From NCBI GenBank assembly GCA_039024555.1, contig JBCCQQ010000017.1, positions 38,252 through 102,251 on the forward strand: a stretch of DNA of 64,000 bases. The letters run 5' to 3'. Both the position numbers and the translations under genes were made by a program. The notes beneath the pieces are model-generated. The model worked only from the letters and a program-made list of their open reading frames with translations, ran no database searches and had not been told where the DNA came from. This DNA is from Cyanobacteria bacterium P01_D01_bin.156. GTDB lineage: Bacteria > Cyanobacteriota > Cyanobacteriia > Phormidesmidales > Phormidesmidaceae. Below are positions 36,491 to 44,197 of the stretch, one piece after another (the first letter of the stretch is position 1; every line of letters begins with the position of its first letter).

Positions 36491-37810
36491 ATGTCGCCTG
36501 AAGATGCCATCACTCTTGTGGATAAACTGCTCTCACCGTATCGCCTAACGGCCATTCAAGAGGTCGTTTTTAGACGATGCTGGCAGGGCTCAACCTATGC
36601 TGAAATTGCTGCTAGTGAGGGCTATGATGCAGACTATGTAAGGGTTACTGGCTCCCGCCTTTGGCAAAAAATTTCCCAGGTTCTGGGGGAGCGAGTCACT
36701 AAAAAGAATATTCACGCAGTTCTCCGGCAGCAGGCCCATCAGCTACATCAACCTGATACTCCAGATGTCTGGTGGCCCGGTGGTACGCAGCAGGCAGACA
36801 CACCTTTTCCTGGCAGTCCTCTGCCCCTAGGCAGTCCTTTTTACATTGATCGTCCTCCGGTGGAGAAACAGGCCATGGGGGAGTTGCTTAAGCCTGGAGC
36901 ATTACTCAGGATTCGAGCACCGGAACGGTGGGGAAAAACGTCTCTAGTCAATCGTCTTGTGGCCCAGGCCCAGGCATTTGGTTTTCATGTGGTGCGACTA
37001 AACTTTCGCCAAGCCGATGGTGCGGTACTTGCTAACTTTGATAAATTTTTGCGATGGTTTTGTGCCAACATTGCTCAGCAGCTAAAACTGTCTGCCTGTT
37101 TAGATGATGTATGGAATAGTGATCTCGGTAGCAAGGTTAGCTGTACTAACTACATGCAAACCAATGTCTTGACGCCGCTTCAGCAGCCCTTGCTATTAGT
37201 GATTGACGATCTCCAGGCAGTCTTTGAGCATCCCGCGATGGCTCAGGAGTTTTTACCAATGCTGCGGGTATGGCATGAGGAAGCTAAAAATTTACCAGAA
37301 TGGGGACACCTGAGGCTGCTTGTCGCCTATGCAACCGAAGCCTACATTCCCTTACAGATTCATCAGTCCCCTTTTAATGTTGGTCTGCCGTTGCGACTGC
37401 CAGCCTTTACCATTGCTCAAACCCGGCAGCTGGCACAGCGTTACAGGGTGTCATGGGAAGATGGCCTGAGTAATCTCCATACCTTAGTAAATGGCCATCC
37501 TTACCTGATTCATCTAGCTTTGTATAACCTCAGTGTTTGCAAAATGGACTTGCAAGCACTTATTGATGAAGCTCCGCAACACAGTGGCATATACAGTGAT
37601 CATCTGCGTAGCTACTTAGCGATTTTTGAGACAGAACCCAAGCTGTGTCGTTCGTTTTATCAAGTAATCAAAGAAGATACAAATACAGAGCTAGAACCCA
37701 TGGCAGCCTATCGCTTAGAAAGTATGGGTCTGGTAACTCTGAGCGGTAACACAGCAACGGCTAGCTGCAATCTATATAAGCAGTACTTTGGCGGCCGCTT
37801 AGGCGTCTAG
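36491..37810 (+). CDS. N-terminal HTH + AAA_35 (STAND-like) domain protein
   Basis: WQGSTYAEIA...GSRLWQKISQVLGERVTKKN HTH; PFYIDRPP, APERWGKTS, LLVIDD, QSPFNVG, GHPYL. Confidence 0.85.
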   Translation: MSPEDAITLVDKLLSPYRLTAIQEVVFRRCWQGSTYAEIAASEGYDADYVRVTGSRLWQKISQVLGERVTKKNIHAVLRQQAHQLHQPDTPDVWWPGGTQQADTPFPGSPLPLGSPFYIDRPPVEKQAMGELLKPGALLRIRAPERWGKTSLVNRLVAQAQAFGFHVVRLNFRQADGAVLANFDKFLRWFCANIAQQLKLSACLDDVWNSDLGSKVSCTNYMQTNVLTPLQQPLLLVIDDLQAVFEHPAMAQEFLPMLRVWHEEAKNLPEWGHLRLLVAYATEAYIPLQIHQSPFNVGLPLRLPAFTIAQTRQLAQRYRVSWEDGLSNLHTLVNGHPYLIHLALYNLSVCKMDLQALIDEAPQHSGIYSDHLRSYLAIFETEPKLCRSFYQVIKEDTNTELEPMAAYRLESMGLVTLSGNTATASCNLYKQYFGGRLGV

Positions 37811-38197
37811 TCCAGCTGAAGATGTGACTACTTTGCCGATTGAGGTTTGACTCAACGACATTAATGCCTGGATGTGGGCAAATATGTCTTCGGCATCATA
37901 GGCCCCAGCAAGATAGGCATCCGCTCCGCCACAGGCGGGTGCTACATAGGTGTTACTACACACCATGACAGGGATATGGCCCACAACAGAACTGTGCTTG
38001 ATGCGATCGCAGACCTCCTGAATATCTAACCCAGGAGCAGATTCCACGAGCACCAGTTCAGGCGCAATAAAGCTTAACAGGGGGAGTAAAGTCTCATCGC
38101 TTTCAACCTGGAAAACAGAAAGCCCATGCCAATGTAACAAGTCAGTCAACAGAGCTTCTGGCTGATGAGTATTTCCAACGATTGCAATGGCTTTCAT
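37799..38197 (-). CDS. Stand-alone degenerate receiver (REC-like) protein
   Basis: PELVLVE...PGLD..EVC..IK....HIPVMV...GADAYL fold pattern; phospho-Asp replaced by Glu and conserved Lys missing; AGGAGG RBS. Confidence 0.7.
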   Translation of the reverse strand: MKAIAIVGNTHQPEALLTDLLHWHGLSVFQVESDETLLPLLSFIAPELVLVESAPGLDIQEVCDRIKHSSVVGHIPVMVCSNTYVAPACGGADAYLAGAYDAEDIFAHIQALMSLSQTSIGKVVTSSAGLDA

Positions 38198-38526
38198 AAC
38201 ATACCTCCTGAGAGTCTTAAAGCCTGTAACAATGCCAACACGGCACGGAAAAATGGCTAAAAGCCATCATTAAAAACGAAAATGAGAATGCAAAACAGCT
38301 GAGTAAGGCGCTTTCACCAACCTTTACGCAACAATCAAAGCAGCAGAGCTGCCAAATCATCTGGCCCTTAACACAGACGCTCTTAAGTGATGTGAACCAA
38401 GCCTGTGATCAACTAACGGTTAGTTGGAATCACTGCCATGGATGTAATCTAAGGGAAAACACCAAAATTCTGTAAGGCTAAAAAAGTAATTTAAAAGAAG
38501 ATCCTAGGGGTTTTCCTGGATACCAC

Positions 38527-41500
38527 CTAAATGCCCCCACTACAGAGCTGCCGGTCAGTATCCGATAAGTTATCCCCGTTGGCTAGGTAATTATCGAGCC
38601 AACGGCAGCCGTCTTCTAGTAACTGTTCAAAATTACGATTGTCTTGCCAGTTCCATAAAATGACTTGTCGATCGTGGCCGCTAGACACCACTGTTTGCCC
38701 ATCGGGACTAAAGGCTACGTCCCAGGTGAATCCATTGTGTCCGTACAGGGTGGTTACCAAGGTGCCATCCTGTCGCCAAATGCGAACGGTGCGATCGTAG
38801 CTAGTGGAGGCTAGGAGCTGGCCATCGGGACTAAAGGTGACACTATGTACGCGGGCTCGATGGCCATTCAGTACGGCTACAGGTTTACCCTCAATGGACC
38901 ACAACCGTACGGTGTGGTCGGCGCTAGCTGAGGCAATCAGCTGACTATCAGGGCTGACGGCGACGGCCCAAATAGGTGAACGATGACCGTGAATACTTTT
39001 GAGCAGTCCTCTATCACGGCCCCACACTTTGATGGTGTGGTCCCAACCAGCAGACACTAGATACTGGCCATCGGGGCTGTAGGCAATGCCATATACGCGG
39101 TTGCGATGACCTGTCAGGGTATGCAAGAGGTTTCCCTGACGATTCCATAGCTTAACGGTGCCATCCCAGCTCGCGGAAGCAATCTCCTGACCCTCAGGGC
39201 TAAAGGCCACCCCCCAGACGCGATCTTGATGACCCTTTAGCGTGTTTAGCAGGGTCCCGTTGGGCCGCCATAGCTTAACGGTTTGATCCGCGCTGGCAGA
39301 TGCTAATGTGCGTCCATTAGGGCTAAAGGCTACCTGTCGAACCCGATCGGTGTGTCCCCGCAGCACAGATTCTAGGGTTCCTTGCCAATCCCACAGCCGG
39401 ATCGTGTTGTCCCAACTGCCAGCTGCCAAGGTCCGTTGATGAATGGCTAATCCGGTGACTGGCCCGTCATAGCCGTCAAGTGTAGTGTTGATTTTATCCA
39501 AGCGCCACAGCCGTACGGTGGCATCGTCGCTGCTGGAGGCCAATAAATCCCCGGTGGGGTTAAAGTCAACGCTCCAAGTCCCGGCATCATGACCTTGAAG
39601 GGTGGTGACCAAGGTGCCGCTGCTGGTCCAGAGTTTGACCGTATTGTCCCAACTCGTGGAAGCCAGTCGTCGTCCATCTGAGCTAAACCGCAGATTCCAC
39701 ACCCGGTCTTGGTGCCCCTCTAACGTCATGGGTTGAAGCGGTTGCTCGGTGGCCGTGGACTGGTCGCTTAGATACTCCTCAATGGACCACAGCTTAATAG
39801 TTTTGTCATCGCTGCCAGAGGCTAAGAGCCGACCGCTTGGAGTAAAGGCCAATCCATAGATACCCGCTTGGTGACCCCGTAGTTCGTTTAATAATTCCCC
39901 ACTGGTGGCATCCCACAGTCGAATTGTCTGATCTTCACTAGCGGTTACTAATGTCAGTCCATCGGGACTAATCAGTGTCTGGGTAACACTGGCATCATGG
40001 GCGGGAACATCTAGCAATAGCTCTCCGGTTCTATCCCAGAGTTTGAGGGTGCCATCGTCCCCACCGGTTACAAAGGTTTGACTATCGAGGGCGATATCCA
40101 CACTATTGACCCGACCTCGATGCCCCTGCAGCGTAATAGGGGGGGCAACGCTGGTGGGCAAATCATTTTCATAGCTGATGGGCCAGACTTTAGCTGTGGC
40201 ATCCGCGCTTACGGATACTAAATACTCTCTATCGGGACTAAAGCTAACGTCCCAAACAGCATTGGTGTGGCCACTGAGGGTGGTGATTAGCTGGCCATCC
40301 GCATGCCACAGCTTGATGGTGTTGTCCCAGCTGGCGGAGGCCAAATACTCTCCATCAGGACTAAAGGTAACCCCGTATACGGGGGCTCGATGTCCCCGTA
40401 GCTGATTAGCTTCGGAAATACCTTGCATTATCTTCCGTAGGGTTTTTTCTACTTCCTGTTTCACCAGGGGTTGAGGTCTGGGTAAACGCTGTAGCTGTTG
40501 CCCAGACCGCACGGCTTCTAGAAGAGATTTTAGACGATTGTTTTGGTTAAACAGGGCATCGGCCCGATAGCTTGCCGATAGGGCCTGGTTATTTTGGTTA
40601 TCTTGACGGGTGAGCATGGTTTGCCGTGACTGGCGATAGGCCAGCATGGCTACACTGGTAATGCTCAAAAATGCGATGCCCATCCCCACTAATAGAAAGC
40701 GTTGTAGGGTAACATTGCGCTGCTGGGCTTGCAGTTTGGCTTCAAGTTCCTTTAACCGTTCTGATTCCAGTGCCTGCTGTACTTCCTGACGGTCTACGGC
40801 TTCACTGTCGGATAAGAACTTATAGTCTAGATCGCTGAGCTGTTGGCCCTTTGCCCAGGCTTGGGCTTCCACAAGAGACTGACCTCGCAATAGTCGAGAA
40901 CGATCTTGTTGTCCAGACTGTATCCAGGCTTCAAAGGTCTGGGAATAGGGGCGCAACCGGTCTAGGTGATAGTCTATCCAGGCATCGTTAAATACTTTAC
41001 GATAGAGCTGGTTGCGAATGGTTAACTGGCCTGCCTGTTTAATAATTAATCCTGACAACAACAGCTCCTCTTTGAGGTGATTATCTTCTAAGGTGAGCGA
41101 GTTACCCGATAACAGTTTTTTGTAACTACCCAACAGTCGACTAATCAGCTGAGGGCGAGCCAGTAGACGGTCTTGAATAATACGCAAATGGGGAGGTTCA
41201 TCCTGGGCCTCCCAGTTTTTGACCAGTTGAGACCGCACCAAGCCATCCACCCAGAGTTGTTCCACATACACGTTGGTACGTGATGAGAGCTTATTGACCA
41301 CCAGCTGACAGAGCTTTTGGGTCAAAAATGGCTGACCGTTGGTCCAGGTTAAAATATAGTCGAGAGTTTCTACCGGGTTACTTATTTTTGTGGACAATCC
41401 CTCGGTCAGGGGCATCGCTTCATCCAGGGTAAATCCCCCCAGTTCTATGGCAGTACCAATATTAAAAGGAGTACGATTGGGGTTGTGGCACAGATCTGTT

Positions 41501-42099
41501 GGTGTCGCCACACCAAACAACGCAAAACTCAATCGTCGATATTGAGGGTTGTCTACCCGTTGATTGTAACAATAGCGAATTAATGTAAATAGATCGTCGG
41601 CAGGAAAAGGAAGAGCTAGAACACTGTCGATTTCATCAATAAAGATAACAATGCGGTCAGCTTCAATTTGTTTAAGTACCGCATCTTTCATAAACCTTTC
41701 TAGACGATGCACGGCGGATAGACTATCCACCTGTTGCCACCACTGTTGAAAGTTACCCTGCAGTTTTAGGCTACGCCATAGCTCTGCTGCAATTCCCATA
41801 TACCAAGTTTCAGCAGTCACATGGTCACTGCCCAAGTTAGTCAAATCAATCGCTGCACAGCATACTCCATCTTGCTGTAAGCGGTACTTTGTTCTTACCC
41901 GCAGGCTAGATTTACCAATCTGGCGAGTGTTGAACACATAGCAAAACTCTCCTTGCTCTAGACTACGGTATAGATAATCATCGGCCTGGCGTTTGATGTA
42001 TGTGGGGGCCTGAGCGTGGAGACTGCCGCCGACTTGATAGGAGTATAGGGTGATTGGGGACATGGGGCTATCGTCCGAGGGAGCAGAAAAAGTGGGCAC
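38527..42099 (-). CDS. AAA_35 NTPase - TM - WD40 repeat protein
   Basis: YQVGGSL..APTYIKRQAD, NTRQIGKSS, IFIDEID, TPFNIG; one TM; ~14 GH...WD/W repeats; start may be ATG 42063. Confidence 0.9.
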   Translation of the reverse strand: MPTFSAPSDDSPMSPITLYSYQVGGSLHAQAPTYIKRQADDYLYRSLEQGEFCYVFNTRQIGKSSLRVRTKYRLQQDGVCCAAIDLTNLGSDHVTAETWYMGIAAELWRSLKLQGNFQQWWQQVDSLSAVHRLERFMKDAVLKQIEADRIVIFIDEIDSVLALPFPADDLFTLIRYCYNQRVDNPQYRRLSFALFGVATPTDLCHNPNRTPFNIGTAIELGGFTLDEAMPLTEGLSTKISNPVETLDYILTWTNGQPFLTQKLCQLVVNKLSSRTNVYVEQLWVDGLVRSQLVKNWEAQDEPPHLRIIQDRLLARPQLISRLLGSYKKLLSGNSLTLEDNHLKEELLLSGLIIKQAGQLTIRNQLYRKVFNDAWIDYHLDRLRPYSQTFEAWIQSGQQDRSRLLRGQSLVEAQAWAKGQQLSDLDYKFLSDSEAVDRQEVQQALESERLKELEAKLQAQQRNVTLQRFLLVGMGIAFLSITSVAMLAYRQSRQTMLTRQDNQNNQALSASYRADALFNQNNRLKSLLEAVRSGQQLQRLPRPQPLVKQEVEKTLRKIMQGISEANQLRGHRAPVYGVTFSPDGEYLASASWDNTIKLWHADGQLITTLSGHTNAVWDVSFSPDREYLVSVSADATAKVWPISYENDLPTSVAPPITLQGHRGRVNSVDIALDSQTFVTGGDDGTLKLWDRTGELLLDVPAHDASVTQTLISPDGLTLVTASEDQTIRLWDATSGELLNELRGHQAGIYGLAFTPSGRLLASGSDDKTIKLWSIEEYLSDQSTATEQPLQPMTLEGHQDRVWNLRFSSDGRRLASTSWDNTVKLWTSSGTLVTTLQGHDAGTWSVDFNPTGDLLASSSDDATVRLWRLDKINTTLDGYDGPVTGLAIHQRTLAAGSWDNTIRLWDWQGTLESVLRGHTDRVRQVAFSPNGRTLASASADQTVKLWRPNGTLLNTLKGHQDRVWGVAFSPEGQEIASASWDGTVKLWNRQGNLLHTLTGHRNRVYGIAYSPDGQYLVSAGWDHTIKVWGRDRGLLKSIHGHRSPIWAVAVSPDSQLIASASADHTVRLWSIEGKPVAVLNGHRARVHSVTFSPDGQLLASTSYDRTVRIWRQDGTLVTTLYGHNGFTWDVAFSPDGQTVVSSGHDRQVILWNWQDNRNFEQLLEDGCRWLDNYLANGDNLSDTDRQLCSGGI

Positions 42100-42135: not shown

Positions 42136-43083
42136 CTATTCGAGCACCAGCTTAGCAATGGGGGGTGTCGCCTTTTGTTTCCGAAAACTGACTGCCTGCT
42201 GTAATAGTTGCCAGGCACTTGGAAAGAAGATAGCCGGTAAGCTAAAGCGAATGGCATTGGCCAAGCGTTTCTGTTTGAGGGCGACTATCATCCAATGGAG
42301 ACTTAAGTACTGACGGATGGTTTGAAGAGTGGGTAGCTTGTCCTGATGTTTGGGGCTAACGTGTTGGTAGATACGTTCCTTGATCAGAATATTGGTATCT
42401 AGACGAGTGCGCAGGTTGATTTTTTGGTCGTAGCCACCGGGCCAAACTGTCCGGTAGGTGAGGCACTGATTAACAAATAAGGCATCTCCATGGTCGGCCA
42501 CCCGAATCCAGGAATCAATGTCATCAAAGCCCGTCATGGTCAGATCCCATCCTCCGGATTTGATAAAGGCATGCCGCTGCACGGCTACCTGGATTGGTGT
42601 ACCAAAGGGAACTACTTCCAGGAACATACCGTAGTGAATATCTACCTGGGGAATATAAAACATCTGCCCTGGCCCAGTAGGGGGAGTACGGCTTAATTCC
42701 TGACCGTTGGTGTCCACCTGGGCTGCCTGACAGGAGCAGATTACGGCTTCGGGCCGCTGTTGAATAGCCTGGATCAGGGTTTCAATGCAGTTGGGGGCTA
42801 GGTAGTCGTCATCGTCTACGAGCTTAACCCAGTCCCCTGTGGACCGTTCTACTCCCGCATTGACGGCTCCTGAGTGATTGGTATTGATGTGATTGCGGTG
42901 GTATGTAACTCGGTCCCCTAGGCTCTCTAAATAGTCCTGGGTGCCATCGGTGGATGCATTGTCTACCACGATGACTTCGCATGGAACGGTTTGGGCCAGG
43001 GAGGTTGCGATCGCACGCTTTAAAAGCTCCACCCGGTTGTAGGTGGTGATAACAATACTGAATGATACGGTGTCTGCTGCCAT
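42136..43083 (-). CDS. Glycosyltransferase family 2
   Basis: SIVITTYNR, VVDNASTD, VDDDD, DDIDSW; likely ATG 43083 (ORF to 43098). Confidence 0.9.
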   Translation of the reverse strand: MAADTVSFSIVITTYNRVELLKRAIATSLAQTVPCEVIVVDNASTDGTQDYLESLGDRVTYHRNHINTNHSGAVNAGVERSTGDWVKLVDDDDYLAPNCIETLIQAIQQRPEAVICSCQAAQVDTNGQELSRTPPTGPGQMFYIPQVDIHYGMFLEVVPFGTPIQVAVQRHAFIKSGGWDLTMTGFDDIDSWIRVADHGDALFVNQCLTYRTVWPGGYDQKINLRTRLDTNILIKERIYQHVSPKHQDKLPTLQTIRQYLSLHWMIVALKQKRLANAIRFSLPAIFFPSAWQLLQQAVSFRKQKATPPIAKLVLE

Positions 43084-43349
43084 GGCACCATGCCTCATAA
43101 GTGCTACACGCTATTGTGCCAAATTCAAGCCTGGGACTGACAAATATGTGTCTTTTTTTGATAGATACAGGAGGGCATTGCCATTGTGTAGGTGGCAAAT
43201 AGGTTAGGGGGGTGTTCTTCTAGGCAGTTGATTCCATGGTCCACAGGTTCCTATTTTGGTTCTGATTATTTGCCCTTACAAGTGACCTTAGCAATAAGCC
43301 TTTCGTAGGCTATGCCCATTACAAATGCATCTGTGATTTTCCAAAATTG

Positions 43350-43380
43350 TCCTGAACCTGAACGGCAATTTCGTAGATAT
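43350..43380 (+). promoter_or_regulatory. DIF1-like promoter of sRNA copy 1
   Basis: TCCTGA (43350) N16 CGTAGATAT; 35 nt before GGTAGATGCACCC. Confidence 0.65.
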
Positions 43381-43383
43381 GGG

Positions 43384-43444
43384 TGGTAGATGCACCCTGA
43401 TGATTTCCTTAGCCCTTCGGGGCTAGGGAATTTTTTTGTCTTTT
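43384..43444 (+). ncRNA. nsiR1: NsiR1-like small RNA, copy 1
   Basis: TGGTAGATGCACCCTGA 5' end matches the NsiR1 5' sequence as I recall it; TTCCTTAGCCC-TTCG-GGGCTAGGGAA-T7 terminator; 61 bp identical to copy 2. Confidence 0.7.
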
Positions 43445-43476
43445 TTTAATGCGGTACATCAGACTTCTTAAAACTA

Positions 43477-43507
43477 TCCTGACCCCTTAGGGGGTGTTCG
43501 TAGATAT
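43477..43507 (+). promoter_or_regulatory. DIF1-like promoter of sRNA copy 2
   Basis: TCCTGA (43477) N16 CGTAGATAT; identical spacing to copy 1 although the spacer is largely unrelated. Confidence 0.65.
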
Positions 43508-43510
43508 AGA

Positions 43511-43571
43511 TGGTAGATGCACCCTGATGATTTCCTTAGCCCTTCGGGGCTAGGGAATTTTTTTGTCTTTT
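43511..43571 (+). ncRNA. nsiR1: NsiR1-like small RNA, copy 2
   Basis: Exact copy of 43384..43444 at 127-bp period, with own promoter and terminator. Confidence 0.7.
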
Positions 43572-43615: not shown

Positions 43616-44197
43616 TTATTGTTCATCAAACTCCACCGCTTCATAGAGATCCGTCAGCTTTATCTCCACACCGACAGATTCCAGCCGAAAGCTAGCTTCT
43701 AAACCCCGATACTTGGTCAGTAACCACTGGTCTGCTGACTGTTTGGCATAATGATCCACCTGGGGTTGATACTGGTCAATCAGCACATATTCCTCAAAGC
43801 TCTCCATCGTACGATAGGCTTCAAATTTGTCACCTCGATCATAGTTCTGAGTAGATTTTGAGAGCGTTTTCGCAATCAAAACAGGGTTCATTACCGTATC
43901 CTTGCGACCGGGTTGTAGCTCCAGTGGTTTAGGGACAACCATCACATCTGGATAGGTGTAAAGTTTCACCGCTGGTATCCACAGTCGTTGATCGGTTACA
44001 AAGATGCTGTACGGCTGTTTACGTAAACTTGCCTTGAGCAAAAAAATGAACATGCCTGTAATTTCGTTATGCTCTGGCGTGCCCCCTGTCATTTCAACAA
44101 TTTTTCCATTCTGAAATTCATTGCGTGTATCCGCTTCGATTTCTAACGCCAGATATTCTTCAGCAGTGTAGGTTTTAGTCGTAGTTGCAACGGTCAT
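43616..44197 (-). CDS. Uma2/DUF820 family protein
   Basis: YTAEEYLALE, MTGGTPEH, YTYPDV, LSKST..YDRGDKF..YR, EYVLIDQ. Confidence 0.92.
   Translation of the reverse strand: MTVATTTKTYTAEEYLALEIEADTRNEFQNGKIVEMTGGTPEHNEITGMFIFLLKASLRKQPYSIFVTDQRLWIPAVKLYTYPDVMVVPKPLELQPGRKDTVMNPVLIAKTLSKSTQNYDRGDKFEAYRTMESFEEYVLIDQYQPQVDHYAKQSADQWLLTKYRGLEASFRLESVGVEIKLTDLYEAVEFDEQ

Follow-up and report, generated by a model that had tools for sequence, protein, structure and literature searches.

The window, by which we mean the whole stretch of 64,000 nucleotides that was analysed, carries a tandem pair of short repeats between a divergent GT2 glycosyltransferase gene and a convergent Uma2-family gene, the latter followed by an RlmL-type methyltransferase gene (Table 1). 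Comparison of the two copies gave an identical run of 61 nt (43384-43444 and 43511-43571) with a period of 127 nt, exactly the coordinates reported in an earlier note on this DNA. Both copies have the layout TCCTGA-N16-CGTA-N8, followed by TGGTAGATGCACCCTGAT, a UUCG-looped hairpin of 11 bp and a run of seven T, and in each GGTAGATGCACCCTGA begins 35 nt 3' of the TCCTGA. The distance to the start, the -10 box and the UUCG hairpin with its T7 tract were thus recovered in both copies as described there. The 16-nt spacers between the boxes are identical at only 7 of 16 bases while the boxes and their spacing are kept, as had also been claimed. Folding of the terminator hairpin (11 bp, UUCG loop, U7) gave -20.5 kcal/mol and a z-score of -2.45, with 5 of 200 shuffled sequences equally good.

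The same note placed the repeats inside a polysaccharide locus. We found that they lie beside the polysaccharide genes and not within them, the main run of these genes beginning near 47 kb. Elsewhere in the window, at 36491-42099, a small receiver-like ORF lies between convergent AAA_35 genes, of which one has 14 WD40 repeats, and a kinase-NACHT gene lies immediately upstream of this group.

Table 1. Predicted features of the tandem nsiR1 pair and the two flanking genes, in window coordinates.
Feature	Position	Strand	Basis
Copy 1 -35 element, TCCTGA (DIF1 / sigma-HetZ type, fourth base G to T)	43350..43355	+	consensus and tolerated positions, PMC13342950
Copy 1 -10 element, CGTA (consensus TGNA), 16 nt past the -35 element	43372..43375	+	GTA invariant in 13/13 aligned genus copies
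nsiR1 copy 1, predicted 54-nt sRNA, inferred start 43384	43384..43437	+	Rfam RF02399, 55.8 bits, model 1-60
Copy 1 invariant 18-nt 5' seed, predicted mRNA-pairing region	43384..43401	+	alignment invariance and pairing tests
Copy 1 intrinsic terminator, 11-bp stem, UUCG loop, U7	43405..43437	+	folding and 13-copy alignment
Copy 2 -35 element, TCCTGA	43477..43482	+	motif position
Copy 2 -10 element, CGTA	43499..43502	+	motif position
nsiR1 copy 2, RNA identical to copy 1 (seed 43511-43528, terminator 43532-43564)	43511..43564	+	Rfam match and identity
GT2 glycosyltransferase gene, divergent flank (context only)	42136..43098	-	PF00535
Uma2-family gene, convergent flank (context only)	43616..44197	-	PF05685

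Against the Rfam NsiR1 model (RF02399) both copies scored 55.8 bits each (E 8.4e-10), above the gathering score of 39 and over the whole model (1-60). The repeats starting at 43384 and 43511 are almost certainly NsiR1-family sRNA genes. The traits of the family are present, namely a 5' segment that is invariant and leads into an intrinsic terminator, a DIF1-type promoter for each copy, and multiple copies that are partly in tandem. The earlier proposal of a divergent NsiR1 homolog therefore holds as to homology, while the full-length match speaks against divergence, and the different terminator is no distinguishing mark because terminator stems vary among all NsiR1 homologs. Matches to the PyrR and PhotoRC-I models fell far under their cut-offs. 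Across the 6.62 Mb of the host genome we found seven NsiR1 matches at five loci, six of them above the cut-off, including two tandem pairs. An eighth core-like match on contig C13 had neither promoter nor terminator and was discarded as chance. Thirteen copies from seven genomes of the genus were aligned. They agree in the -35 box, in GTA within the -10 box, in a spacing of 16 nt and in the first 18 nt at the 5' end but differ in the spacer sequence, the pattern seen in the window. Among these 13 copies, which are related sequences, 93.7% of the cells in the terminator stem are paired and 3 of the 11 pairs have two-sided changes. We conclude that the pair adds a new member to a known family and that the locus itself is ordinary.

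The predicted RNA shares with NsiR1 of Nostoc/Anabaena PCC 7120 the 5' sequence GUAGAUGCACCCUGAU, a length of about 55-60 nt, the intrinsic terminator and the tandem arrangement with a DIF1-type promoter for every copy (PMC9045159). There are two copies here and 12 in PCC 7120, and the -35 box is TCCTGA here and TCCGGA there. Unlike the PCC 7120 array, the pair does not lie upstream of hetF, so that there is no cis-antisense copy here, and the host is most likely without heterocysts. The host also differs from PCC 7120 in having further copies at four other loci, one of them behind a HetR box. A further hallmark of NsiR1 is cell-specific transcription under HetR and NtcA on nitrogen step-down.

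The sigma factor HetZ recognises TCCGGA-N16-17-TGNA-N7-9-T, and in this consensus the fourth base of the -35 element (G-32) is replaceable and T-13 is partly replaceable by C (PMC13342950). TCCTGA-N16-CGTA-N8-T of both copies fits with two changes, both at tolerated positions. The TCCTGA variant is also found in the hepA promoter of Anabaena, where a HetZ ChIP peak of 8.4-fold covers the nsiR1(1-12) array and is decreased in the mutant; in the dataset of the same paper, nsiR1 RNA is listed as up in the hetZ4-201 mutant despite the lower HetZ ChIP peak (PMC13342950). The pattern TCC[G/T]GA-N16/17-NGNA occurs at 4.6e-5 per base genome-wide, yet it stands at -34/-35 in six of the seven nsiR1 copies of the host. 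This suggests that the pair is likely transcribed by HetZ (or HetZ').

A wider scan of upstream regions covered at least 191 seed copies with 60 nt of upstream sequence. Among the matches listed, 125 have DIF1 within one mismatch, the definition used for the DIF-positive set, and of these 81 have TCCGGA and 25 TCCTGA. Forty-four of the other 66 copies among the matches listed carry GGG-N5-CCC, mostly at -40, compared with 2 of the 125 in the DIF1 class; nine of the 66 are in non-cyanobacterial records and look like chance. GGG-N5-CCC is the core of the HetR-binding site (PMC4649674, PMC4192349). We conclude that there is a sibling class of predicted NsiR1 genes in which a HetR box replaces DIF1, with at least 44 copies at at least 32 loci. 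This genome contains one such copy, on contig C34 (51881-51931, minus strand) downstream of gatB, which scores 32.1 bits, below the Rfam cut-off, and whose upstream region has, in place of DIF1, a HetR-type GGG-N5-CCC box together with a TATAAT-like -10 element.

The host genome has 47% GC, and for both the cassette and the C34 copy the nearest named records among the matches listed belong to Leptothoe, a genus in Nodosilineales. Leptothoe is a non-heterocystous genus, and no PfaA/HglE-type synthase reached the cut-off in the host genome. The host is thus most likely without heterocysts, as the earlier note had supposed from the letters alone. Its genome contains patX-hetR, hetZ (over the cut-off) followed by patU, hetZ' and hetF; both hetR and hetF, the presence of which was to be established, were therefore found. 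The gene that we take to be hetF, from its N-terminal CHAT layout and its likeness to HetF, is on contig C19 with no NsiR1 copy near, so that the reported lack of hetF beside the pair was correct and hetF is unlinked to it. Orthologs of this gene adjoin NsiR1 copies at 8 of 26 loci; the copy antisense to hetF is found at 8 of 26 hetF loci and is not a family-wide arrangement. PatX (L160:4451-4699) has four RGSGR motifs and a TCCTGA-N17-TGTA promoter, upstream of hetR. What part hetR and patX play in filamentous, non-heterocystous cyanobacteria has been called a mystery (PMC11298460). At hetZ-patU junctions, non-coding ones included, TCCGGA lies 15-18 nt ahead of the patU ATG in 23 of 24 loci, and the host junction has TCCGGA-N17-TGAA, a predicted sigma-HetZ promoter overlapping the patU start. 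The host assembly also has two similar nif clusters of the order nifB-fdxN-nifSU-nifHDK-nifZ-nifEN-like (C59:14973-27090 and C71:14058-26289), which reflect either duplication or binning.

NsiR1 was found over the cut-off in 35 of 41 relatives including the host, in all 24 genomes of the family, and in 42 of 150 genomes across the phylum, again including the host. We compared this distribution with that of the circuit genes in 48 genomes chosen from the relatives and phylum sets. hetZ was present in 25/25 genomes with NsiR1 above the cut-off and in 0/23 NsiR1-negative genomes, and hetF, followed in 36 genomes, was present in the same 25 positives, the 11 negatives yielding a single weak partial match. 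Since these genomes are related by descent, no statistical test is claimed for the counts. Of 40 relatives, 32 had hetR, as did 42 of the 64 genomes checked among the 149 of the phylum. It was rejected as the best companion gene because it follows NsiR1 less closely than hetZ does, G031, G034 and G153 being the three exceptions. In G031 and G034 hetZ is present and hetR was not found, and all five NsiR1 copies (5/5) have DIF1 promoters; G153 has hetR, hetZ was not found there, and its single weak NsiR1 match stands behind a HetR box. One further genome, G169, has a copy with intact seed and terminator (C1:2922721-2922775) and neither DIF1 nor HetR box, and hetR and hetZ were not found in it, so the seed appears able to persist outside the HetZ circuit. 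A weak match in genome G106 was rejected because the seed is absent. The suggestion that the pair may represent a pre-heterocyst form of the circuit is compatible with this distribution.

To ask which mRNAs the seed may pair with, we took the 18 nt at the 5' end of the window copy, scored their pairing with start regions (-30 to +15) and ranked the scores against those of 4727 host start regions. Of six circuit genes tested, five were followed across genomes; targets that score better may lie elsewhere. Starts were assigned by rule, hetZ at the aligned GTG position and hetZ' at the first in-frame ATG. At L292, L295, L299, L307 and L311 in-frame stops just upstream of hetZ force the GTG start of the 'VEA' motif; in other lineages the hetZ frames start at an ATG and are longer.

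In 18 of 24 genomes the hetZ start region ranks in the top 5%, and the count for hetZ' is the same; none of 150 shuffled seeds did as well for either gene. The patU start region ranks in the top 5% in 12 of 23 genomes (it was not located in one of the 24), with 5 of 150 shuffled seeds as good. For hetF the top 5% was reached at 8 of 26, and 19 of 150 shuffled seeds did as well, which is not significant across lineages. When ACCCU, the anti-Shine-Dalgarno part, was held fixed and one genome of this genus was used, shuffles as good numbered 0, 0 and 6 of 150 for hetZ, hetZ' and patU; the 18 hetF loci that lack an antisense copy gave 20 of 150. Other ORF starts at the fetched loci reached the same top-5% threshold in 8% of 195 cases. 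Against a background of Shine-Dalgarno-bearing starts the top-5% counts are lower, at 13/22 for hetZ, 7/22 for hetZ' and 9/21 for patU. The motif GTGC-N2-4-AC[C/T] is present in 14 of 24 hetZ' leaders compared with 0.5% of the background, and in two long-array genomes of the family (L300 and L302) a nearly complete complement of the seed abuts the patU start on its 5' side. The patU site shares sequence with the end of the hetZ coding region in 14 of 23 genomes and is also the spacer of a sigma-HetZ promoter, so its conservation could stem from either. Within the host the ranks are top 0.3% for hetF, 0.5% for hetZ', 0.8% for patU and 1.9% for hetR, while hetZ is weak, at only 12-30%. hetR was rejected as a family-wide target, reaching the top 5% in 6 of 29, every one in this genus.

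Our model starts from what was observed, namely that the pair belongs to the family, how its promoters are built, that NsiR1 co-occurs with hetZ and hetF, and that the complementarity is conserved. For this organism we infer transcription, dependence on sigma-HetZ, actual pairing and repression as follows. Each nsiR1 copy would be transcribed by HetZ (or HetZ'), the tandem arrangement would raise the dose of NsiR1, and the RNA would act in trans, its invariant 5' seed pairing with the start regions of HetZ-circuit mRNAs. By masking ribosome-binding and start regions the seed would lower translation, which we propose by analogy because NsiR1 of Nostoc represses alr3234 and hetF by pairing at their start regions (PMC9045159). 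The predicted targets best conserved across lineages are hetZ, hetZ' and patU. Pairing at the first two would act as negative feedback on the sigma factors, and pairing at the mRNA of the anti-sigma factor PatU would form a positive loop that relieves the sigma factors of PatU. The balance of damping and relief would differ by lineage, the strong sites in the host being hetF, hetZ', patU and hetR. The C34 sibling would place the same seed under a HetR-box promoter. That the pair is driven by sigma-HetZ and that its seed pairs with the starts of HetZ-circuit mRNAs and blocks their translation is, taken as a whole chain, an account that we consider slightly on the probable side.

More tentatively, and with something less than an even chance in our estimation, NsiR1 could be a pre-heterocyst RNA arm of the HetZ-PatU-HetR switch, with the seed frozen by joint pairing of its different parts to the start regions of hetZ, hetZ' and patU and fed by both sigma-HetZ and HetR-box promoters. 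If so, the hetF-linked array of Nostoc would be just one arrangement among others, and the core circuit of the heterocyst as it is drawn now would miss a direct RNA feedback loop that was already present in a non-heterocystous form. The known targets of NsiR1 offer no obvious reason for the invariance of its 5' end across lineages. The interest of the pair lies in a testable, base-precise prediction of feedback on the HetZ circuit.

The occurrence of NsiR1 in a non-heterocystous organism is not new, since homologs outside heterocyst-formers are already in print, and the novelty that the earlier note saw in it is reduced accordingly. A 2016 supplement (Table S3, PMC4734099) has 11 non-heterocystous filamentous strains among the 38 positive strains of 89, including Trichodesmium IMS101 and Leptolyngbya PCC 7375 and 6406, and RNA162 of Limnospira indica PCC 8005 was described as an NsiR1 homolog in 2021 (PMC8400943). 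The accessible portions of these two sources give presence or expression, and no promoter class, hetZ link or target. The host resembles Anabaena PCC 7120 in its sigma-HetZ/PatU/HetR circuit, as the promoter consensus fits and hetZ, hetZ', patU, hetR and patX are all present; the main text of the Anabaena circuit paper, as far as it is accessible, has no mention of NsiR1 and no RNA feedback on hetZ, hetZ' or patU (PMC13342950). Neither hetZ, hetZ' or patU as targets nor a HetR-box class was found in the accessible parts of PMC9045159, PMC11797042, PMC12288457 and PMC3610870 or elsewhere in the NsiR1 literature searched, and Brenes-Alvarez 2020, Ionescu 2010 and supplements may hold such. Within the literature searched, then, the co-occurrence of NsiR1 with hetZ, the complementarity of the seed to the starts of hetZ, hetZ' and patU, and the HetR-box sibling class are apparently new.

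Two other explanations treat the pair as something other than a trans-acting sRNA, and we regard each as very improbable. The pair could be no more than a silent repeat, or could represent an IS or MITE end, and the occupancy of the locus is indeed patchy among congeners. However, the genome holds just seven copies in 6.6 Mb, each with a promoter and a terminator, their common part is the 5' core alone, and no terminal inverted repeats flank the pair; because of the low copy number and the complete units we agree with the earlier note that this is not an IS or MITE end, the many dispersed copies expected of one being absent. Against silence stand the promoter boxes held at fixed spacing while the spacer varies, and the compensatory changes in the terminator. 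The pair could also regulate the divergent GT2 gene as a cis-antisense RNA, in the manner of nsiR1.1 and hetF, with which it shares the divergent layout, and a cassette adjoins the same neighbour gene in 6 of 21 congeners. Its distance to the GT2 start varies from about 0.13 to 1.4 kb, however, and no cassette was found in the ~1.5 kb examined at the GT2 gene of the other 15/21. Because the cassette stands beside this gene in so few congeners and at variable distance, the polysaccharide context looks incidental.

The remaining explanations accept a functional sRNA and dispute its targets. NsiR1 could be driven by sigma-HetZ and keep its Nostoc targets, hetF in trans and hetP-like genes, with the complementarity to hetZ, hetZ' and patU incidental. 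hetF and the hetP-like alr3234 are the two demonstrated targets of NsiR1 (PMC9045159). hetF is also the strongest circuit site in the host, within the top 0.3%, and hetF loci without an upstream antisense copy pair better than those with one (7/18 against 1/8 in the top 5%). Across lineages, however, hetF was not significant (19/150 and 20/150) whereas hetZ and hetZ' were (0/150), and we consider this explanation unlikely. Slightly less likely again is a genuine sRNA that has its main conserved target outside the het circuit or that acts through protein binding. PatR binds NsiR1 in Nostoc (PMC11797042), G169 has a seed-bearing copy with neither hetR nor hetZ found, and 45 other genes rank above hetF in a single-genome screen. 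Against this, the copies above the cut-off track hetZ exactly in the 48 genomes, and two distinct parts of the seed match the conserved leaders of two sigma-factor paralogs. Feedback on the HetZ circuit is our preferred reading.

The single-genome screen covered 5371 start regions of the host and is too noisy for use alone. patX, which ranked 2166 of 5371, was rejected as a target. The top match is a 137-aa ORF of unknown function (C48:7439-7852, minus strand) beside relaxase-like and conjugation-like genes, with a 14/15 complement of the seed about 35 nt ahead of its likely ATG.
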